Part shown: piece by piece, positions 2,937 to 41,226 of the stretch
Layout of the letters: each line of letters starts with the position of its first letter
Position numbering within the stretch: position 1 is the first letter of the stretch
IMG/VR virus record: IMGVR_UViG_638341085_000012
Direction: 5' to 3' (one strand)
DNA length: 42,309 bases
From: a virus
Lineage: Duplodnaviria > Heunggongvirae > Uroviricota > Caudoviricetes
Notes under the pieces: model-generated
Database searches by the model: none
The model's input: only the letters and a program-made list of their open reading frames with translations
Told to the model about the DNA's origin: nothing
Position numbers and translations under genes: made by a program

Positions 2937-3406
2937 TGGTTGCCTCCCTTGCGAAGCTCTGCGACGAACTCGTTAAGTGATATGTAGCAATCTCCAAATG
3001 TTAACGAACCGCTCGACTGCATATGCTCCATAGCCATCTCCACGCCCTGCGCCCGTACTTCAGCCAGGAATGCGTCGGTGGCTGGGGTTTTGATTTCGTT
3101 AAGCGCATCACTGAATCCACCACGCTCCATACCTAGCTCTGCTTCGTAATCGGCATCGAATGCAGCGTCTTTGCAGAACTTCTTCATCCCCGCACTCTCC
3201 GCTGCCAGCGCCACGCACTTGGCCTCAAGGTTATCAATCGTGATTCCAGCAGAACGACACTCCCGCAACGCCGTTTCCAGTTTTGATTCAAGATCACCGA
3301 ACTTACGCACCAGATATTCAGCGTTTGTTTCGTTAACCTTTAAATCTCGTGGGATGCATTTACCTTTCAGAAAACCATCCATCTCAATTAGTGACATTTG
3401 TTTCAT
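2933..3406 (-). CDS. Hypothetical early-left protein, 157 aa
   Basis: ATG verified at 3406 on the minus strand; 4-bp overlap with the downstream gene; protein-like composition. Confidence 0.5.
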
Positions 3407-3567
3407 TTCTTCCCACTCCGCAACATCGCATTCAGATATTTGTTTTGATTCACTGATGGAAAAGAATTTCTCTTAAGTAATTCCTCTCTCGATGGCATTG
3501 GCTTTACGCGTTGGCGAATAATCATTTCTGCCGGAAGAATGCCGGGATTGTATGCAAGTCCTCTCAT
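3403..3567 (-). CDS. Hypothetical small protein, 54 aa
   Basis: ATG 10 nt after the upstream stop, with GAGGA SD overlapping that stop; start chosen over the longer 105-aa reading frame. Confidence 0.3.
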
Positions 3568-3577
3568 AGTAAATTCC

Positions 3578-3874
3578 TCAGTCATTACTGATAGCGCCAT
3601 AGCGTGAGCGGTAATTACGCAGGCGAGGGTCGATATATTCAGGGAAGTGGGTATATGTGGCTTTGCGGAATGGTCGGATTGATGTCTGGTAAATTCGCTC
3701 GCGTTCTTCTTTCTCTGCAAGCCATATACAATGGCGAAATTCCTTTTCCTCTTTCGTTTCCTGCGGTAGCGACATTATCCGGTTGTAGTTTTTCCTGAAT
3801 TTATCCAGCACCTCCGATACGGAATTGCCGGAACAGCGGCGCGCGTCATCCGCACCATACAGAGGCGCTGGCAT
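3578..3874 (-). CDS. Hypothetical early-left protein, 98 aa
   Basis: [16 protein letters not shown]...; sits between ssb and the downstream small ORF in the same leftward operon. Confidence 0.45.
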
Positions 3875-13099: not shown

Positions 13100-13540
13100 A
13101 TGAAAAAACTAACCTTTGAAATTCGATCTCCAGCACATCAGCAAAACGCTATTCACGCAGTACAGCAAATCCTTCCAGACCCAACCAAACCAATCGTAGT
13201 AACCATTCAGGAACGCAACCGCAGCTTAGACCAGAATCGAAAGCTTTGGGCTTGCCTTGGTGACGTCTCTCGTCAGGTTGAATGGCATGGTCGCTGGCTG
13301 GATGCAGAAAGCTGGAAGTGTGTGTTTACCGCAGCATTAAAGCAGCAGGATGTTGTTCCTAACCTTGCCGGGAATGGCTTTGTGGTAATAGGCCAGTCAA
13401 CCAGCAGGATGCGTGTAAGCGAATTTGCGGATCTATTAGAGCTTATACAGGCATTCGGTACAGAGCGTGGCGTTAAGTGGTCAGACGAAGCGAGACTGGC
13501 TCTGGAGTGGAAAGCGAGATGGGGAGATCGGGCTGCATGA
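13100..13540 (+). CDS. ninB: NinB (Orf-family recombination mediator), 146 aa
   Basis: MKKLTFEIRSPAHQQNAIHAVQQILPDPTKP... matches recalled lambda NinB; strong SD. Confidence 0.85.
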   Translation: MKKLTFEIRSPAHQQNAIHAVQQILPDPTKPIVVTIQERNRSLDQNRKLWACLGDVSRQVEWHGRWLDAESWKCVFTAALKQQDVVPNLAGNGFVVIGQSTSRMRVSEFADLLELIQAFGTERGVKWSDEARLALEWKARWGDRAA

Positions 13541-14064
13541 CTATCAAATCAAATACGCCAGCACACGACAAGGACTGCTGGCAAACGCCGCTTTGGCTTT
13601 TTGATGCACTGGATATTGAGTTTGGATTCTGGCTGGATTCGGCAGCGAGCGACAAAAATGCTCTGTGCGCTCACTGGCTAACTGAGGCTGACGACGCGCT
13701 AAATTCTGAGTGGATAAGCCACGGTGCAATCTGGAATAACCCACCGTACAGCAATATCAGGCCGTGGGTGGAAAAAGCCGCTGAGCAGTGCATACAACAG
13801 CGACAGCCGGTAGTGATGCTTGTGCCAGAGGATATGTCTGTCGGATGGTTCAGCAAGGCTCTGGAGAGTGTTGACGAAGTTCGCATTATCACTGATGGAC
13901 GGATTAATTTTATCGAACCATCGACGGGGCTGGAGAAGAAGGGAAACAGCAAAGGCTCCATGCTGCTGATTTGGCGACCATTCATCAGTCCTCGACGGAT
14001 GTTTACTACCGTATCCAAAGCGGCATTGATGGCGATCGGGCAGGGTGTCAGGAGGGCTGCATGA
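13537..14064 (+). CDS. Phage Dam-like DNA N6-adenine methyltransferase, 175 aa
   Basis: NPPY catalytic motif (IWNNPPYSN); ATGA overlaps with the ninB stop and the ninC start. Confidence 0.75.
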   Translation: MTIKSNTPAHDKDCWQTPLWLFDALDIEFGFWLDSAASDKNALCAHWLTEADDALNSEWISHGAIWNNPPYSNIRPWVEKAAEQCIQQRQPVVMLVPEDMSVGWFSKALESVDEVRIITDGRINFIEPSTGLEKKGNSKGSMLLIWRPFISPRRMFTTVSKAALMAIGQGVRRAA

Positions 14065-14933
14065 TAAATGTCGTTAGTTTCTCAGGTGGCAGGACGTCAG
14101 CATATTTGCTCTGGCTAATGGAGCAAAAGCGACGGGCAGGTGAAGACGTGCATTACGTTTTCATGGATACAGGTTGTGAACATCCAATGACATATCGGTT
14201 TGTCAGGGAAGTTGTGAAGTTCTGGGATATACCGCTCACCGTATTGCAGGTTGATATCAACCCGGAGCTTGGACAGCCAAATGGTTATACGGTATGGGAA
14301 CCAAAGGATATTCAGACGCGAATGCCTGTTCTGAAGCCATTTATCGATATGGTAAAGAAATATGGCACTCCATACGTCGGCGGCGCGTTCTGCACTGACA
14401 GATTAAAACTCGTTCCCTTCACCAAATACTGTGATGACCATTTCGGGCGAGGGAATTACACCACGTGGATTGGCATCAGAGCTGATGAACCGAAGCGGCT
14501 AAAGCCAAAGCCTGGAATCAGATATCTTGCTGAACTGTCAGACTTTGAGAAGGAAGATATCCTCGCATGGTGGAAGCAACAACCATTCGATTTGCAAATA
14601 CCGGAACATCTCGGTAACTGCATATTCTGCATTAAAAAATCAACGCAAAAAATCGGACTTGCCTGCAAAGATGAGGAGGGATTGCAGCGTGTTTTTAATG
14701 AGGTCATCACGGGATCCCATGTGCGTGACGGACATCGGGAAACGCCAAAGGAGATTATGTACCGAGGAAGAATGTCGCTGGACGGTATCGCGAAAATGTA
14801 TTCAGAAAATGATTATCAAGCCCTGTATCAGGACATGGTACGAGCTAAAAGATTCGATACCGGCTCTTGTTCTGAGTCATGCGAAATATTTGGAGGGCAG
14901 CTTGATTTCGACTTCGGGAGGGAAGCTGCATGA
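14061..14933 (+). CDS. ninC: NinC-like PAPS-reductase-fold protein, 290 aa
   Basis: PP-loop SFSGGRTS near the N-terminus; size and position as lambda NinC. Confidence 0.75.
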
Positions 14934-15103
14934 TGCGATGTTATCGGTGCGGTGAATGCAAAGAAGATAACCGCTTCCGACCAAATCAACCTTACTGGAA
15001 TCGATGGTGTCTCCGGTGTGAAAGAACACCAACAGGGGTGTTACCACTACCGCAGGAAAAGGAGGACGTGTGGCGAGACAGCGACGAAGTATCACCGACA
15101 TAA
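14930..15103 (+). CDS. ninD: NinD-like small Cys-rich protein, 57 aa
   Basis: [16 protein letters not shown]...; ATGA overlap with the ninC stop; below the track cutoff. Confidence 0.5.
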
Positions 15104-15246
15104 TCTGTGAAAACTGCAAATACCTTCCAACGAAACGCTCCAGAAATAAACGCAAGCCAATCCCAAAAGAATCTGACGTAAAAACCTTCAACTACACGGC
15201 TCACCTGTGGGATATCCGGTGGCTAAGACATCGTGCGAGGAAATGA
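15070..15246 (+). CDS. ninE: NinE-like protein, 58 aa (GTG start)
   Basis: [58 protein letters not shown] matches recalled lambda NinE; AAGGAGGA SD. Confidence 0.6.
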
Positions 15247-15608
15247 CAATGGATTATTCACAGTTAAGTGATTTTGAAATTAACGTGGCGGTATTCGAAG
15301 CCATTCATAACGGATCACCGGATTACAAAGAAGGTGAGAATGGCGATATGGTGTTTGTCTCATTTGAGGGAGACATTGTAAACGGAGACGCAGTTGAAGT
15401 AGAAGTTGAGCGCGGATCCTTTAACCCATGCGCAAACCCAGCAGACTCATGGCCGATTATTGAAAAATACAGGATTAGCATTATCAATCTCGATGAAGAC
15501 GAGTGGGGTGCACGCGGTGTGGCCTACTGTAAATCTAAGCGAGCTATACATGAAAATCCCCTTCGCGCCGCCATGATTGTCTTTCTCATGATGCAGAGAA
15601 TCCAATAA
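15243..15608 (+). CDS. Hypothetical acidic nin-region protein, 121 aa
   Basis: ATGA overlap with the ninE stop and TAATG overlap with the ninF start; [24 protein letters not shown]... Confidence 0.5.
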
Positions 15609-16322
15609 TGCTTAGCCCATCCCAATCCCTTCAATACCAGAAAGAAAGCGTCGAGCGAGCTTTAACGTGCGCTAACTGCGGCCAGAAGCTGCATGTGCTG
15701 GAAGTTCACGTGTGTGAGCGTTGTATATATGAATGCTTAAATATGGTGGAACATAATGAGAAATATAAGCAACATAGACGAATTAAGAAATAAATTATCA
15801 TATGATGATGTTTTAGGTGTACTTAGATGGAAAGTGTCTCCTTCTAATAATGTTAAGGTTGGCAGTGTTGCTGGTTACATTAGGAGTGATGGTTATAGGA
15901 TGTTAACTATCGATGGTGTAATTACTTATGCTCACCACGTTATATGGATGATAAATAATGGTGAGATTCCATTAGGGTATAAAATTGATCATATAAATGG
16001 AGTAAGGTCAGATAATAGGCTATCTAATCTTCGATTGGTTACACACCAACAGAATGCACAGAACCAAAAGAGAAAAATAACCAATTCGTCAGGAGTGACT
16101 GGAGTATATTTCAATAAAGAGAGATGTAAGTGGATTGCGAATATATGCGTAGATGGGCGCACCAAATATCTTGGAATATTTGCTAGCATCATTGACGCTA
16201 TTGCAGAAAGGAAGAGGGCAGAAAAAGAACTGGGTTTTCATGAAAACCATGGTAGACCATAACTGCGCAGAACTGATGAGCGATCCGAATAGCTCGATGT
16301 ACGAGGAAGAAGACGATGGCTA
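15608..16322 (+). pseudogene. ninF: ninF interrupted by a 539-bp insertion: 5' fragment 15608..15724 (39 codons) and 3' fragment 16264..16322 (19 codons) in different frames
   Basis: 5' part [39 protein letters not shown] and 3' part [19 protein letters not shown] together reconstitute recalled lambda NinF; the insert is not a multiple of 3. Confidence 0.6.
15756..16262 (+). CDS. HNH homing endonuclease with AP2-type DNA-binding domain, 168 aa
   Basis: HNH motif HINGVRSDNRLSNLRLVTHQQNAQN; C-terminal SGVTGVYFNKERCKWIANICVDGRTKYLGIF; AT-rich relative to flanks. Confidence 0.8.
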   Translation: MRNISNIDELRNKLSYDDVLGVLRWKVSPSNNVKVGSVAGYIRSDGYRMLTIDGVITYAHHVIWMINNGEIPLGYKIDHINGVRSDNRLSNLRLVTHQQNAQNQKRKITNSSGVTGVYFNKERCKWIANICVDGRTKYLGIFASIIDAIAERKRAEKELGFHENHGRP

Positions 16323-16927
16323 AACCAGCGCGAAGACGATGTAAAAACGATGAATGTCGGGAATGGTTTCACCCTGCATTCGCCAATCAGTGGTGGTGCT
16401 CTCCAGAGTGTGGAACCAAGATAGCACTCGAACGACGAAGTAAAGAACGCGAAAAAGCGGAAAAAGCAGCAGAGAAGAAACGACGACGAGAGGAGCAGAA
16501 ACAGAAAGATAAACTTAAGATTCGAAAACTCGCCTTAAAGCCCCGCAGTTACTGGATTAAACAAGCCCAACAAGCCGTAAACGCCTTCATCAGAGAAAGA
16601 GACCGCGACTTACCATGTATCTCGTGCGGAACGCTCACGTCTGCTCAGTGGGATGCCGGACATTACCGGACAACTGCTGCGGCACCTCAACTCCGATTTG
16701 ATGAACGCAATATTCACAAGCAATGCGTGGTGTGCAACCAGCACAAAAGCGGAAATCTCGTTCCGTATCGCGTCGAACTGATTAATCGCATCGGGCAGGA
16801 AGCAGTAGACGAAATCGAATCAAACCATAACCGCCATCGCTGGACTGTCGAAGAGTGCAGGGCCATCAAGGCGGAGTATCAGCAGAAACTCAAAGACCTG
16901 CGAAATAGCAGAAGTGAGGCCGCATGA
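16316..16927 (+). CDS. ninG: NinG/Rap recombination-promoting nuclease, 203 aa
   Basis: [20 protein letters not shown]...; Cys-rich zinc motif; overlaps the ninF 3' fragment as in lambda. Confidence 0.85.
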
Positions 16928-17130
16928 CGTTCTCAGTAAAAACCATTCCAGACATGCTCGTTGAAGCATACGGAAACCAGACAGAAGTAGCACGCAGACT
17001 GAAATGTAGTCGCGGTACGGTCAGAAAATACGTTGATGATAAAGACGGGAAAATGCACGCCATCGTCAACGACGTTCTCATGGTTCATCGCGGATGGAGT
17101 GAAAGAGATGCGCTATTACGAAAAAATTGA
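16924..17130 (+). CDS. ninH: NinH, 68 aa
   Basis: [37 protein letters not shown]... matches recalled lambda NinH. Confidence 0.85.
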
Positions 17131-17773
17131 TGGCAGCAAATACCGAAATATTTGGGTAGTTGGCGATCTGCACGGATGCTACACGAACCTGATGAAAAAA
17201 CTGGAGACGATAGGATTCGACACCAAAAAAGACCTGCTTATCTCGGTTGGCGATTTGGTCGATCGCGGTACAGAGAACGTCGAATGCCTGGAATTAATCA
17301 CATTCCCCTGGTTCAGAGCTGTACGTGGAAACCATGAGCAAATGATGATTGATGGCTTATCAGAGCGTGGAAACGTTAATCACTGGCTGCTTAATGGCGG
17401 TGGCTGGTTCTTCAATCTCGATTACGACAAAGAGATTCTGGCTAAAGCTCTTGCCCATAAAGCAGAAGAACTTCCGTTAATCATCGAACTGGTGAGCAAA
17501 GATAAAAAATACGTCATCTGCCACGCCGATTATCCCTGTGACGAATACGAGTTTGGAAAGCCAGTTGATCATCAGCAGGTAATCTGGAACCGCGAACGAA
17601 TCAGCAACTCACAAGACGGGATCGTGAAAAAAATCAAAGGCGCGGACACGTTCATCTTTGGTCATACGCCAGCAATGAAACCACTCAAATTTGCCAACCA
17701 GATGTATATCGATACTGGAGCAGTGTTCTGCGGAAATCTCACATTGATTCAGGTACAGGGAGAAGGCGCATGA
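17108..17773 (+). CDS. ninI: Ser/Thr protein phosphatase NinI (lambda PPase family), 221 aa
   Basis: Metallophosphatase motifs GDLHGC, GDLVDRG, GNHE. Confidence 0.85.
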
Positions 17774-18393
17774 GACTCGAAAGCGTAGCTAAATTTCATT
17801 CGCCAAAAAGCCCGATGATGAGCGACTCACCACGGGCTACGGCTTCTGACTCTCTTTCCGGTACTGATGTGATGGCTGCTATGGGGATGGCGCAATCACA
17901 AGCCGGATTCGGAATGGCTGCATTCTGCGGTAAGCATGAACTCAGCCAGAACGACAAACAAAAGGCTATCAACTATCTGATGCAATTTGCACACAAGGTA
18001 TCGGGGAAATACCGTGGTGTGGCAAAGCTCGAAGGAAATACTAAGGCAAAGGTGCTGCAAGTGCTCGCAACATTCGCTTATGCGGATTATTGCCGTAGTG
18101 CCGCGACGCCGGGAGCAAGATGCAGAGATTGCCACGGTACAGGCCGTGCGGTTGATATAGCAAAAACAGAGCAGTGGGGGAGAGTTGTTGAGAAAGAGTG
18201 CGGAAGATGTAAAGGCGTCGGTTATTCAAGAATGCCAGCAAGCGCAGCATATCGCGCTGTGACGATGCTAATCCCAAACCTTACCCAACCCACCTGGTCA
18301 CGCACTGTTAAGCCGCTGTATGACGCTCTGGTGGTGCAATGCCACAAAGAAGAGTCAATCGCAGACAACATTTTGAATGCGGTCACACGTTAG
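17770..18393 (+). CDS. Q: Late antiterminator Q, 207 aa
   Basis: [31 protein letters not shown]... matches recalled lambda Q over its length. Confidence 0.9.
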
Positions 18394-18435
18394 CAGCATG
18401 ATTGCCACGGATGGCAACATATTAACGGCATAATA

Positions 18436-18464
18436 TTGACTTTTTGAATAAAGTTGGGTAAATT
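18436..18464 (+). promoter_or_regulatory. Late promoter PR' (-35 TTGACT, 17-bp spacer, -10 TAAATT)
   Basis: Lambda-like PR' sequence downstream of Q. Confidence 0.65.
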
Positions 18465-18499
18465 TGACCCAACGATGGATAAATGCACTCGTTAAATAA

Positions 18500-18535
18500 A
18501 GCCCTGAGTTAATAGCTCGGGGCTTTTTGCGTTTT
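18500..18535 (+). terminator. Strong rho-independent terminator ~40 nt downstream of PR'
   Basis: AGCCCTGAG-TTAATA-CTCGGGGCT followed by TTTTGCGTTTT. Confidence 0.65.
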
Positions 18536-18671
18536 AAGCACGGCCTTTCTGAAAGCACATCAAACCAAATACCAGGCAGACCAAAATAATCACCTTATCC
18601 GCTGTGTCTACGGTGCGGTGTGCTTTGCATAAAAGAAAACCAGCGCAATGGCTGGCTTCGTGAAAGCGGGT

Positions 18672-18710
18672 GGCAAGAGGTTGCGCTAACAACCTCCTGC
18701 CGTTTTGCCC
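18672..18710 (+). terminator. Lambda tR'-like terminator
   Basis: GGCAAGAGGTTGCGCTAACAACCTCCTGCC followed by GTTTTGCC. Confidence 0.65.
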
Positions 18711-18826
18711 GTGCATATCGGTCACGAACAAATCTGATTACTAAACACAGTAGCCTGGATTTGTTCTATCAGTAATCGACCTTATTCCTAATTAAATAGA
18801 GCAAATCCCCTTATTGGGGGTAAGAC

Positions 18827-19150
18827 ATGAAGATGCCAGAAAAACATGACCTGTTAGCCGCCATTCTCGCGGCAAAGGAACAAGGCATCGGGGCAATCCT
18901 TGCGTTTGCAATGGCGTACCTTCGCGGCAGATATAATGGCGGTGCGTTTACAAAAACAGTAATCGACGCAACGATGTGCGCCATTATCGCCTGGTTCATT
19001 CGTGACCTTCTCGACTTCGCCGGACTAAGTAGCAATCTCGCTTATATAACGAGCGTGTTCATCGGCTACATCGGTACTGACTCGATTGGTTCGCTTATCA
19101 AACGCTTCGCTGCTAAAAAAGCCGGAGTAGAAGATGGTGGAAATCAATAA
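18827..19150 (+). CDS. S: Holin S (S107/S105 dual start), 107 aa
   Basis: [41 protein letters not shown]... matches recalled lambda S. Confidence 0.9.
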
Positions 19151-19610
19151 TCAACGTAAGGCGTTCCTCGATATGCTGGCGTGGTCAGAGGGAACAGATA
19201 ACGGACGTCAGAAAACCAGAAATCATGGTTATGACGTCATTGTAGGCGGAGAGCTATTCACTGATTACTCCGATCACCCTCGCAAACTTGTCACGCTAAA
19301 CCCAAAACTCAAATCAACAGCAGCCGGACGTTACCAGCTTCTTTCCCGTTGGTGGGATGCCTACCGCAAGCAACTTGGCCTGAAAGACTTCTCTCCCAAA
19401 AGCCAGGACGCAGTGGCATTGCAGCAGATTAAAGAGCGTGGCGCTTTACCGATGATTGATCGCGGTGATATTCGTCAGGCTATCGACCGTTGCAGCAATA
19501 TCTGGGCTTCACTGCCGGGTGCTGGTTATGGCCAGTTCGAGCATAAGGCTGACAGCCTGATTGCAAAATTCAAAGAGGCTGGCGGAGCGGTCAGAGAGAT
19601 TGAGGTATGA
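19134..19610 (+). CDS. R: Endolysin R (lytic transglycosylase), 158 aa
   Basis: [42 protein letters not shown]... matches recalled lambda R. Confidence 0.9.
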
Positions 19611-20074
19611 GCAGAGTAACCGCGATTATCTCCGCTCTGGTTATCTGCATCATCGTTTGCCTGTCATGGGCTGTTAATCACTACCGTGATAACGCCATCG
19701 CCTACAAAGAACAGCGAGATAAAAAAGTCAGTGAGCTGAAGCAGGCGACCGCCACCATTACTGACATGCAGCAACGCCAGCGTGCTGCTGATGCACTCGA
19801 TGCTAAATACACGAAGGAGTTAGCTGATGCGAAAGATGAAAATGATGCTCTTCGGCGCAAGCTTGATAATGGTGGCAGGGTGCTCGTCAAAGGAAAATGC
19901 CCTGTGCCATCCTCAGCCGAAACCTCCGGCGCCTCCGGCATGGGCAATGATGCCACCGTCGAACTCTCTCCAGTTGCTGGACGAAACGTTCTCGGTGTCC
20001 GGGACGGAATTATCCGCGACCAAACAGCACTGAGAACGCTTCAGGAATACATCAGGACGCAATGCCTTCGATGA
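19607..20074 (+). CDS. Rz: Spanin inner-membrane subunit Rz, 155 aa
   Basis: N-terminal TM segment [31 protein letters not shown] as in lambda Rz; C-terminal half divergent. Confidence 0.85.
19827..20033 (+). CDS. Rz1: Spanin outer-membrane lipoprotein Rz1, embedded in Rz in the +1 frame
   Basis: Lipobox MVAGC followed by a Pro-rich segment ([11 protein letters not shown]); exact start Met uncertain. Confidence 0.6.
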
Positions 20075-20420
20075 TAGCGATAATTTTACTCATCATCCTT
20101 CACATCTGGCTCTGTAGACAGGGTGATGATCACTTCTGGAGTGAATCCAGATTAAACATCTCATTGCTGATGCTTGATATTGAGCATCTGGCGCGCGGTA
20201 AGGGGCTGCGTTGAGATAAGAGCCAGTCATTACAAATACCAGGATTTAGCCTCGCATTTGCGGGGCTTTTTTACATCTGCAGTAAACCGCGCATCGCAGC
20301 GCGTAACAATCCCGAGTCTTTCAGAAAGCTGAGCCTGAGAATTGCCGTATATGGTGGCGACCATCTCGGGGACGGCTTTTCTGTGCGAACAGGCTCATCT
20401 TTCTAAAAGGTAAAGACGCA

Positions 20421-21593: not shown

Positions 21594-22334
21594 ATGCATC
21601 AAAACTTAGCCAACGCAACATTTCAGGTCATTGCAGGTGATTCTCGTGGTAGCGGGTTCAGTTTCATGCGAGAAAACCTAGTTGTAACTAACTTGCATGT
21701 TGTGGCCACCTGTTGTGACTTACAAACCAAGTGTCAAATCAATGACGTCATTCTTCAAACTGAAGCAAATGAGAGTATCGACGCTAAAATTTTGTATGTT
21801 GATGGTAGTAACGACTTTGCTATCATGCAATTGCAATCCCCCCTTCCTGGCGGAAGAACAGTCCTTCAACCATCTGCTGGGTTTGCTCCATCCAGGGGCA
21901 GAAAAGTAATTTTTGCAGGATACCCGCATGGGATACCTCTGTTACTAACAAGTGAGGCAATTATTTCAGCACCGATGGAGCATGGCCGATTTACGCTTGA
22001 TGGAATGGTTAATGGGGGGAACTCAGGAGGACCTATTATTGATCGAGATTCGGGAGAGTTAGTAGGTATCGTCACCCAGCGTAGATATATAATGGGCGAT
22101 CAGGCTGATGCTTTCAGCCAAGAAATAGCCCAACTGCGACAATATCTTTCTTCAGCAAGTCTGCATAGAAGTGTTGAGATCATGGGTGTTAATTTCGGGC
22201 AAATGGCGGACATGTTTGGTAGATCGCTACAGATTGTTTCGGACATGATGTCGCAGAATGCTAACTCCGGAATTGGTATTGGATTTTCAATCCAGCCCAT
22301 CGTTGATGTGATCACATCTTTCCCTACGAAATAA
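21594..22334 (+). CDS. Trypsin-like (S1/chymotrypsin-fold) serine protease domain protein, 246 aa
   Basis: Catalytic triad in canonical order: H in VVTNLHVV, D in NDFAIMQL, S in GNSGGPII; GGAGG 7 nt upstream; own downstream terminator. Confidence 0.7.
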   Translation: MHQNLANATFQVIAGDSRGSGFSFMRENLVVTNLHVVATCCDLQTKCQINDVILQTEANESIDAKILYVDGSNDFAIMQLQSPLPGGRTVLQPSAGFAPSRGRKVIFAGYPHGIPLLLTSEAIISAPMEHGRFTLDGMVNGGNSGGPIIDRDSGELVGIVTQRRYIMGDQADAFSQEIAQLRQYLSSASLHRSVEIMGVNFGQMADMFGRSLQIVSDMMSQNANSGIGIGFSIQPIVDVITSFPTK

Positions 22335-39907: not shown

Positions 39908-41065
39908 TTACTCCACCTTCCCATCAAGCCAGTCCGCCCACCACTGCATCATTTCTCTGCGCTTATCGAGATACTGAGCATGGTTGTAAATCCCACGCAC
40001 AGATCCGCCGTTGGCATGTGCCAGTTGCACTTCAATAGCGTCAGCAGGCCATTCGTGCTCGTTCATAATCGTGCTGAATTCATGCCTGAATCCGTGACCG
40101 CTTTCCAGACCTTCATAGCCGATTTGTTTGATCACAAGCAGTACAGCGTTCTCGCAAATTGGCTTCTTCTTATCGTTGCGCCCGGCAAAAACAAACTCTG
40201 ATACTGGTTTGGTGATTGAGCTTAGCGTAGTGAGAAGTTCAACTACCTGGTCTGACATAGGAACCACATGAATTTTGCGTCCCTTCATCACACTGGCGTC
40301 GATGGTGATAATCCTGTTTTCAAAATCGACGTTCTTCCATAGCATGGAACGAAGCTCTTTCGTTCTTAGGGCTGTGTAGCGTAAAACTTTGGTCGCAATG
40401 AGCGATACGATACTTCCTGAAAATGTTGCCAGTGCTTTGTTGAATGCCGGGATCTGGTCTGCAGGAAGAAACGGGAAGTTCTTCTTGCGGTATCCCTTCA
40501 TGGCGTCAGCAAGGTCAGGTGCCGGGTTATATTTAGCCCTACCAGTGACAATAGCGTAACGGAAAACCTCGCCGCATCTTCTGCGGGCTTTGTTGGCTCG
40601 CTCCATTGCACCTCGATCTTCAAATCTGCGGATTACTTCCAGCAGTTGCATCGGCTCAATATCCTGAATTTCAAGGCCGCCGATGATAGGTAAAATGTCG
40701 TCATCAAACATTTTTGCAAGTTCATTTGCATAGCCTACTGACCAGACTTGCTTCTTGTGCTCGTACCATTCCTTGTAAATGGCGCTAAAGGAATTGTTGT
40801 TAGACGAAGCCTTTTTCGCCTTTACCGGATCGATGCCAACCGAGATGTCTTTCCTCGCAGTCCATGCTTTATCCCTTGCCTCCTGCAAAGTAATAAGCGG
40901 ATATTTTCCGACGGTCAGGATTTTCTCCTTACCGTCAATCTTGTAGCGAAGCTGCCATACCTTTTTCCCTGACACAGGGACATAAAGGTACAGGCCATTA
41001 CCATCGAGTAGGCGGTATGGTTTTTCTTTCGGCTTTGCTGCTTCAATCTGCTTAACGGTGAGCAT
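39908..41065 (-). CDS. intS: Tyrosine integrase IntS (KplE1/CPS-53 type), 385 aa
   Basis: Matches recalled E. coli IntS from MLTVKQIEAAKPKEKPYRLLDGNGLYLYVP...; the ORF could extend 12 codons upstream to 41101; adjacent to argW. Confidence 0.9.
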   Translation of the reverse strand: MLTVKQIEAAKPKEKPYRLLDGNGLYLYVPVSGKKVWQLRYKIDGKEKILTVGKYPLITLQEARDKAWTARKDISVGIDPVKAKKASSNNNSFSAIYKEWYEHKKQVWSVGYANELAKMFDDDILPIIGGLEIQDIEPMQLLEVIRRFEDRGAMERANKARRRCGEVFRYAIVTGRAKYNPAPDLADAMKGYRKKNFPFLPADQIPAFNKALATFSGSIVSLIATKVLRYTALRTKELRSMLWKNVDFENRIITIDASVMKGRKIHVVPMSDQVVELLTTLSSITKPVSEFVFAGRNDKKKPICENAVLLVIKQIGYEGLESGHGFRHEFSTIMNEHEWPADAIEVQLAHANGGSVRGIYNHAQYLDKRREMMQWWADWLDGKVE

Positions 41066-41226
41066 GGGTAAAAATCCGGTGGGTAAAATTATTTTATCCA
41101 CTTTTTACCCGTCATGGAGTGCGGCTGTCAACGATCTGACGCGAACCATTACGAACTGTGAATCTACGGAAGGCTTGATATTCAGGGGATTTTGCGGACT
41201 GGTACGGATGGGAGCGAACTGATAAA

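Follow-up and report, generated by a model that had tools for sequence, protein, structure and literature searches.

We analysed a 42,309 bp stretch of Caudoviricetes DNA (IMG/VR record IMGVR_UViG_638341085_000012; hereafter the window), a mosaic P22-like/lambdoid prophage with bacterial genes at its left end and P22-type head and tail genes. In its nin region the ninF gene, flanked by NinX upstream and NinG downstream according to Pfam, is interrupted by an insert of 539 bp that carries the gene of an HNH endonuclease. The original prediction, made from the letters of the sequence, placed the end of the first ninF part at 15724, the insert at 15725–16263 with an open reading frame (ORF) of 168 amino acids (aa), and the resumption of ninF, with its overlap of ninG, at 16264. 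All of these positions were confirmed on the sequence. The features of the locus, all on the plus strand, are the following:

15608–15724, plus strand: ninF 5' segment, codons 1–39 (ORF list; Pfam NinF, E 6.4e-12; PHROG 672, E 2.8e-24; aligns with ninF of phage Huey)
15608–15793, plus strand: truncated ORF NinF', 61 aa, made of 39 NinF residues and a basic tail of 22 residues encoded by the insert (IYECLNMVEHNEKYKQHRRIKK)
15719–15724, plus strand: codons 38–39, CGT TGT, substitutions linked to the insert (CAC TGC in intact ninF)
15725–16263, plus strand: insert of 539 bp, probable homing-endonuclease cassette (alignment with the Huey empty site; G+C content)
15745–15750, plus strand: Shine-Dalgarno-like GGTGGA, from reading of the sequence, 5 nt before the HNH ATG (AGGAG at the equivalent place in the diverged copy L117, described below)
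15756–16262, plus strand: HNH endonuclease ORF, 168 aa (Pfam HNH_3, E 1.2e-19; PHROG 99 'HNH endonuclease', E 3.4e-70)
15927–16061, plus strand: HNH_3 catalytic domain, residues 58–102 (Pfam; residue-by-residue alignment to I-HmuI)
16089–16235, plus strand: AP2-like C-terminal DNA-binding domain, residues ~112–160 (three modelled strands and a helix; Foldseek)
16264–16323, plus strand: ninF 3' segment, codons 40–58 and stop (the same 19 residues as intact NinF alleles; overlaps the ninG ATG at 16316)
16316–16927, plus strand: ninG (Pfam NinG, E 2.4e-91; ORF list), its start overlapping the ninF stop (ATGGCTAA) as in uninterrupted phages

The interrupted ninF gene and its empty site

The ninF gene starts at 15608, and codon 39 (TGT) ends at 15724, closing the 5' segment on ...HVCERC. 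Both CxxC pairs of the protein (CANC...CERC) are contained in this segment. The length of the insert leaves a remainder of 2 when divided by 3, so that the 3' part of ninF is shifted by two in frame. The HNH gene is read in a frame unlike that of either ninF segment; this frame is closed upstream by a stop codon at 15738–15740 and ends in its own TAA at 16260–16262. As originally predicted, the insert is AT-rich (G+C content 0.34–0.39, vs 0.47–0.51 in the flanks) and its ORF is preceded by a ribosome-binding site of its own, the GGTGGA run listed above. The nuclease gene is free-standing: it has its own translation signals and no in-frame fusion to ninF.

The uninterrupted state is found in phage Huey, whose ninF has 58 codons and which matches the flanks of the window at 98.7%; the 5' flank and ninF codons 1–39 agree save for a few substitutions. 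Intact ninF reads GAG CAC TGC|TGC GCA at the junction, where the window reads GAG CGT TGT|insert|TGC GCA. Removal of 15725–16263 gives a 58-codon ninF that differs from the common NinF protein only by H38R. The continuity of ninF across the insert had been proposed from the sequence, and the alignments to Huey and other intact alleles bear it out. Both segments are NinF, the 5' part by its Pfam match and the 3' part by the 19 residues it shares with intact alleles. Of 81 uninterrupted loci (Huey and 80 from IMG/VR), ~79 have this empty site. Boundaries at 15724–16262 fit the alignment equally well: the insert then ends exactly on the HNH stop TAA, and the sole change to be explained is CAC to CGT (H38R) instead of three substitutions.

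The altered codons are linked to the insert. CGTTGT occurs in all 29 interrupted IMG/VR alleles with a recovered left junction and in the window, and none of the 81 uninterrupted alleles has G and T at −5 and −4. A joined CGTTGT allele without the insert had no exact match in IMG/VR. Among E. coli genomes, the top matches of an 80-nt joined query were all in two pieces and so belong to interrupted alleles.

Two separate ninF pieces remain at the locus. The 5' piece is read into the insert up to a stop codon in the ninF frame at 15791–15793, so that the end of truncated NinF' overlaps the HNH start. This product keeps both CxxC pairs, and its acidic tail is replaced by the basic tail of 22 residues. 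It is annotated in RefSeq as 'protein NinF' (WP_032192604.1), and the exact protein is found on 498 contigs, one source of which names Salmonella enterica. The 3' piece keeps the native region upstream of ninG, including a Shine-Dalgarno-like GAGGAAG run. Its frame is open for 37 codons back into the HNH gene (16153–16323) and contains ATG codons at 16240 and 16249, which arise from the HENHG motif conserved in the nuclease. Most RefSeq records have a second 'NinF' coding sequence here; the Prokaryotic Genome Annotation Pipeline starts it at a TTG that corresponds to window position 16171.

The encoded nuclease

The HNH_3 match of the 168-aa protein (PF13392) scores 70.1 bits against a cut-off of 24.8 and is therefore above the curated threshold. 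A search of the PDB by sequence gave I-HmuI as a marginal match (E 0.069), which called for a comparison of folds. The AlphaFold2 model (mean predicted local distance difference test score, pLDDT, 90.7; 70 homologues) has I-HmuI (1u3e) as its best full-length PDB match in Foldseek (E 1.2e-3, probability 1.0). D74-H75 and N96 of I-HmuI, reportedly the metal-binding and general-base residues in the structure of that enzyme, correspond to D78-H79 and N100 of the ninF-borne protein. In an alignment of 70 sequences of the family, D78 is invariant, and H79 and N100 are nearly so.

The C-terminal part of the model consists of strands 117–120, 125–132 and 135–142 and a helix 145–159. These last 50–60 residues match the AP2 domains 7et4, 7et5, 1gcc and 7wq5, from TEM1, AtERF1 and WRINKLED1, with Foldseek probabilities of 0.99–1.0 and root-mean-square deviations of 1.7–3.1 Å; the E-values are weak (0.09–0.2) because the domain is small. 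By sequence, the protein misses the Pfam threshold for AP2 (PF00847; 15.4 bits, E 0.024, vs a cut-off of 33.3), and ~18 of 100 homologues have a precomputed PF00847 match. The earlier label 'HNH-AP2' thus stands at the level of the fold and fails by sequence as far as AP2 is concerned.

The ORF is under purifying selection. Compared with the diverged copy L117, its ratio of nonsynonymous to synonymous substitutions per site (dN/dS) is 0.07, with dS ~1.24, and the E. coli cluster has 13 synonymous vs 8 non-synonymous changes (105 synonymous and 399 non-synonymous sites). Selection thus maintains the nuclease. In other phages, more distant relatives (37–50% identity) occur as free-standing HNH genes between genes at unrelated positions. 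At NCBI the name 'serine/threonine protein phosphatase, partial' is given to several partial members of the protein's 90% cluster (15756–16259), apparently by erroneous transfer of the annotation of the nearby NinI phosphatase gene.

The architecture of the insert bears on what kind of element it is. Phage genes split by introns that carry HNH_3 genes exist, for example the tape-measure gene of ICP1 (PMC10448857), and a T precedes the insert, as at the 5' splice site of a group I intron. An insert of this kind, a group I or II intron with a homing endonuclease ORF, would restore NinF by splicing, as would an intein. However, no Rfam family matched 15300–16700 on either strand at E<=10, the ORF takes up 507 of the 539 nt and leaves only 31 nt of the insert outside it, and the insert ends in ...CCATAA(C), that is, in A or C and not in a terminal G. 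The insert cannot be an intein, as its length is not a multiple of 3, its HNH frame contains the stop codon at 15738–15740, and the ORF ends in its own TAA. We therefore agree with the original prediction that the insert is neither an intron nor an intein, and regard splicing of this gene as very improbable.

A discrete AT-rich insertion that disrupts a gene could also be a transposable element, such as an insertion sequence (IS) or a structure resembling a miniature inverted-repeat transposable element, or an artefact of assembly. A search for repeats at the insert ends recovered no target-site duplication or terminal inverted repeats, there is no transposase, and the position is identical in every copy. 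The presence of the exact HNH protein on at least 1000 independent contigs and of the insert in 44 complete genomes argues against an artefact. Both origins appear extremely improbable.

Distribution and genomic contexts

The insert is present, with 98–100% identity, in 44 of 5426 complete E. coli genomes, including enteropathogenic E. coli E2348/69; 1723 E. coli genomes match the ninF region. The genome of FXCREC035 bears two copies of the insert, and that of E2348/69 has 3 ninF places. In all listed E. coli records it lies under annotated NinF fragments. IMG/VR contains 30 close insert loci vs at least 592 ninF loci, and a scan of JGI metagenomes added 4 insert loci with the same junctions. 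The frequency of the element is therefore low, ~2–5% of ninF copies. The contigs with the exact HNH protein come from E. coli and E. albertii. We found the insert in none of the isolated phage records of INPHARED, even at blastn sensitivity, and a protein-based scan of representative bacterial genomes gave no relative. In RefSeq the pieces already bear the names 'HNH endonuclease' and 'protein NinF'; searches of the literature on ninF with HNH or homing, and on homing endonucleases of the lambdoid nin region, gave no account of this insertion.

The junctions are identical and the insert is 539 bp long in 26 of the 27 IMG/VR loci for which both ends were recovered; in the 27th it is 540 bp. The gene is thus present or absent at one precise site among otherwise homologous genomes, and its position after codon 39 is invariant in many otherwise different lambdoid prophages. 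Together with the gene's own ribosome-binding site and stop codon and the existence of empty-site alleles, this upholds the claim of a free-standing HNH gene at a single precise point of ninF.

The surroundings of this point vary. Beyond the ninF 3' end of interrupted alleles, the next gene is one of at least 7, ninG and a Rha/antirepressor-like gene among them; at least 5 of these arrangements are shared with uninterrupted ninF. Upstream, the interrupted alleles have two kinds of ninF 5' end. The alternative one, with AACAAGGTGATTGACC… replacing ATGCTTAGCCCATCC…, is found in about half of them (loci L004, L006–L012 and others) ~75–117 bp upstream, indicating that a mosaic breakpoint lies within ninF, ~75 bp from the insert on its 5' side. 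The annotation of E. coli 14EC007 includes a longer NinF variant.

Exchange of this kind is also frequent without the insert: 13 downstream contexts occur among the 81 uninterrupted loci. This is compatible with the HNH gene being passive or domesticated cargo that entered ninF once, by illegitimate recombination, and was later spread by homologous recombination within the ninF core, the nuclease being retained for some purpose other than homing into ninF, for instance harm to competitor phages or help in recombination. The low frequency of the element and the related HNH genes at unrelated intergenic sites would fit such a history, and purifying selection shows that the protein is useful, not what its purpose is.

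Diversity, age and decay of the insert

We compared nucleotide diversity in 28 interrupted alleles between the insert and the adjacent ninF sequence, taking 69 bp upstream and 53 bp downstream as flanks:

Insert (539 bp): 0.0052 in interrupted alleles; not applicable to uninterrupted alleles
69 bp upstream: 0.018 in interrupted alleles; 0.023 in uninterrupted alleles
53 bp downstream: 0.017 in interrupted alleles; 0.018 in uninterrupted alleles

The diversity of the insert is ~3.5-fold below that of the adjacent ninF flanks, which speaks against spread as mere cargo. The insert has 21 segregating sites in 539 positions, against 14 in 122 for the flanks (Fisher p = 0.0025). With the exception of one singleton, interrupted alleles are monomorphic from about −21 to +32, a tract within which uninterrupted alleles vary (−16, −15, −13 and +3 among other positions). 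Outside this tract, interrupted alleles are polymorphic at −67, +33 and +37, where ninF commonly varies. The cassette seems younger than the surrounding ninF variation and appears to have moved into many backgrounds with only 20–30 bp of flank. Homing with short co-conversion tracts would predict this pattern, and ordinary homologous recombination in the conserved ninF core could also produce it.

The association with this codon of ninF is old. A 909-bp Logan contig (L117; SRR25288770) carries a copy of the HNH gene that is 85% identical in protein and 81% in nucleotide sequence. It stands directly after …IHVCEKC of a diverged ninF-like gene, with the junction TGT|ATATATG as in the window. The acidic end of the ninF-like gene follows the HNH gene and overlaps the start of ybcO, not of ninG. 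The right junction is 27 nt shorter than in the window: the HNH gene lacks the TAA and is 8 codons longer, its TGA overlapping the ybcO start. A dS of ~1.2 at the same codon indicates the age of the association, and the keeping of this position within a diverged host gene is a further point against passive carriage. The 85% variant is represented by this one contig. An IMG/VR scan with the L117-type protein returned the E. coli type only, and the 4 loci that a degenerate pattern for the left junction recovered from JGI metagenomes were likewise of this type. An exact-pattern scan of representative bacterial genomes for the L117-type ninF 3' end was empty, and an uninterrupted form of the L117 host gene was not found.

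Several copies are decayed. In Eco_70239 (L115 263–1491; NZ_CM160040.1) an IS3-family element lies inside the HNH gene, and only insert positions 139–539 are contiguous. In 14EC007 the HNH gene is annotated as a pseudogene. The 540-bp insert (L031 2970–3509; IMGVR_UViG_3300023488_000025) gives a weaker tblastn match, and a 1-nt insertion probably frameshifts its HNH ORF. The original prediction saw the gene as captured in mid-invasion. This is not supported: a copy occupies the same codon at dS ~1.2 and dN/dS 0.07, the frequency is as low as 2–5%, and some copies are decayed. Such a picture resembles a homing cycle at steady state more than an invasion in progress.

Proposed mechanism and its weighing

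Taken together, the insert is probably a free-standing homing endonuclease gene of the HNH_3 type, with an I-HmuI-like fold and an AP2-like domain, residing in ninF of a P22-like/lambdoid prophage. We infer that its product may cleave uninterrupted ninF and thereby home. No promoter-like site was found on the plus strand in 15200–16900, so that the gene would probably be transcribed by read-through as part of the pR/nin early operon. The one terminator-like match on that strand (15704–15719) is ordinary ninF sequence, and total matches did not exceed those in shuffled sequence.

Homing would take place when a phage carrying the insert replicates in one cell with a lambdoid genome that bears uninterrupted ninF. 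The enzyme would nick or cut the intact site, around GAGCACTGC|TGCGCAGAA or nearby, and recombinational repair from the occupied allele would copy the cassette in. Some 20–30 bp of either flank would go with it, the linked CGT (TGT) codons among them. Occupied alleles would be immune because their site is split, and recurrent gain, decay and loss could keep the element at a low frequency.

Several points weigh against homing. Homologous recombination within the ~130 bp conserved ninF core could give the same population pattern, since mosaic exchange among lambdoid phages is highly active. With flanks of only 122 bp, the diversity contrast rests on few sites, and the AT-rich insert and the ninF coding sequence may differ in evolutionary rate. 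No isolated, propagating phage in INPHARED has the insert, all copies being prophages or predicted viral contigs. A frequency of 2–5% is also modest for efficient drive.

With respect to domesticated cargo, the architecture and placement of the gene match those of known homing endonuclease genes (PMC10448857), and homing and damage to competitors can coexist. Together with the diversity contrast and the conserved position in L117, this makes an origin as cargo rather unlikely, and we favour a homing endonuclease gene.

Comparison with known systems

HNH-AP2 genes form an established class of homing endonuclease genes, with members in phages, cyanobacteria and protists, among them IPA-HNH in ICP1 and HNN/HNH-AP2 in the Xanthomonas phages Xp10, OP1 and Xop411 (PMC10448857, PMC2248197). 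Like them, the ninF-borne gene is a small free-standing ORF, scattered and variably present among related phages, with decayed copies, and its product joins an HNH-type nuclease at the N-terminus to an AP2-type DNA-binding domain at the C-terminus. It differs in that its AP2 domain is below threshold by sequence and visible mainly by fold, and in that it lies within a coding sequence of a temperate lambdoid prophage, not in an intergenic region of a lytic phage. The protein matches the canonical Pfam HNH_3 strongly, whereas the IPA-HNH proteins of ICP1 do not.

The resemblance to I-HmuI of Bacillus phage SPO1 extends over the full-length fold and the aligned catalytic D-H...N residues. I-HmuI, however, comes from a gene within a group I intron. 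It nicks one strand, and it binds DNA through a C-terminal part other than an AP2 domain. A parallel in gene arrangement may be drawn with Aeromonas phage Aeh1, in which the free-standing homing endonuclease gene mobE splits nrdA, an essential host gene whose protein fragments reassemble. In both cases a free-standing HNH-family gene stands within a coding sequence and leaves two separately encoded fragments, with no splicing. Unlike nrdA, ninF is dispensable, and translation of its 19-codon 3' fragment is hypothetical. The seg and mob genes of T4 exemplify intronless homing and marker exclusion; they are mostly intergenic, in lytic T-even phages, and the seg products are GIY-YIG nucleases. 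The mechanism proposed for ninF is like theirs: cleavage of the allele without the gene, repair from the allele that bears it, and co-conversion of nearby markers.

The prophage and its other genes

A prophage of E. coli CEC15 is 99.9% identical to the window over 14925–20236 and 100% identical over 15400–16700. Other features of the window are the following:

13477–14064: Dam-type N6-adenine methyltransferase (Pfam Dam, E 3e-64), upstream in the nin region
13971–14933: PAPS-reductase-like ORF of 320 aa, overlapped by the methyltransferase ORF
21594–22334: trypsin-like serine peptidase ORF of 246 aa (Pfam Trypsin_2, E 3e-20), between the lysis and terminase genes
39908–41101: integrase

The methyltransferase and PAPS-reductase-like pair is absent from the closely related CEC15 prophage, and the placement of the peptidase ORF is typical of accessory 'moron' genes. 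In its early-left region, the CEC15 prophage has short pseudogene fragments annotated in RefSeq as 'hNH endonuclease' and hypothetical (L002 10936–11160, ~window 3181–3579), which may be the remnant of another endonuclease gene. None of the scanned window ORFs at ~3181–3579 matched HNH; the matches there are to DUF2737 and the P22 anti-RecBCD protein 2 family.

A further endonuclease gene, and a possible remnant of another, were noticed beside ninF. 14EC007 has a second HNH-AP2 gene (L114 2209–2775; NZ_CP024131.1 1753167–1753733) whose product of 188 aa is 37% identical to that of the window and matches Pfam HNH_3 (E 4e-11) and AP2 (E 2e-4). The first 28 nt of this gene (9 codons) are the start of ninG, and a complete ninG allele that encodes a different N-terminus comes after it. 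With this second gene in ninG, the ninF-ninG junction seems to be a hot spot for this endonuclease family. In L012, as in L024 and L152, the ORF directly after the ninF 3' end starts with MSDVKEKDIPGFEGIYKVTENGDI… and then runs into stop codons. We take this motif to resemble the N-terminus of NUMOD4/HNH-type homing endonucleases, and the ORF may be another decayed endonuclease gene.

Significance

Genes of this kind are otherwise known, and the insert in ninF is notable mainly for its position within a coding sequence of a temperate lambdoid phage and for its clean empty site. It explains why ~2% of ninF-bearing E. coli prophages have, in RefSeq, an HNH gene between two 'NinF' fragments. It also provides a natural pair of empty and occupied alleles for an HNH-AP2 endonuclease that is so far uncharacterised, within the temperate phage family that has been studied best, and the predicted target GAGCACTGC|TGCGCAGAA in ninF is directly testable in lambda or P22 genetics.

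A wider role can be imagined. HNH-AP2 genes might be actively homing among lambdoid prophages of Enterobacteriaceae and repeatedly targeting the adjacent ninF and ninG, with double-strand breaks and co-conversion helping to create mosaic boundaries in the nin region; the split ninF might even work as a 'gene in pieces', a zinc-ribbon fragment with a separate acidic tail. We consider this wider role distinctly doubtful. If homing is not confirmed, the insert would be an ordinary selfish insertion in a dispensable gene. If it is, the locus would offer a tractable case of endonuclease-driven gene conversion between prophages that share a cell, and would bear on the origin of lambdoid mosaicism.

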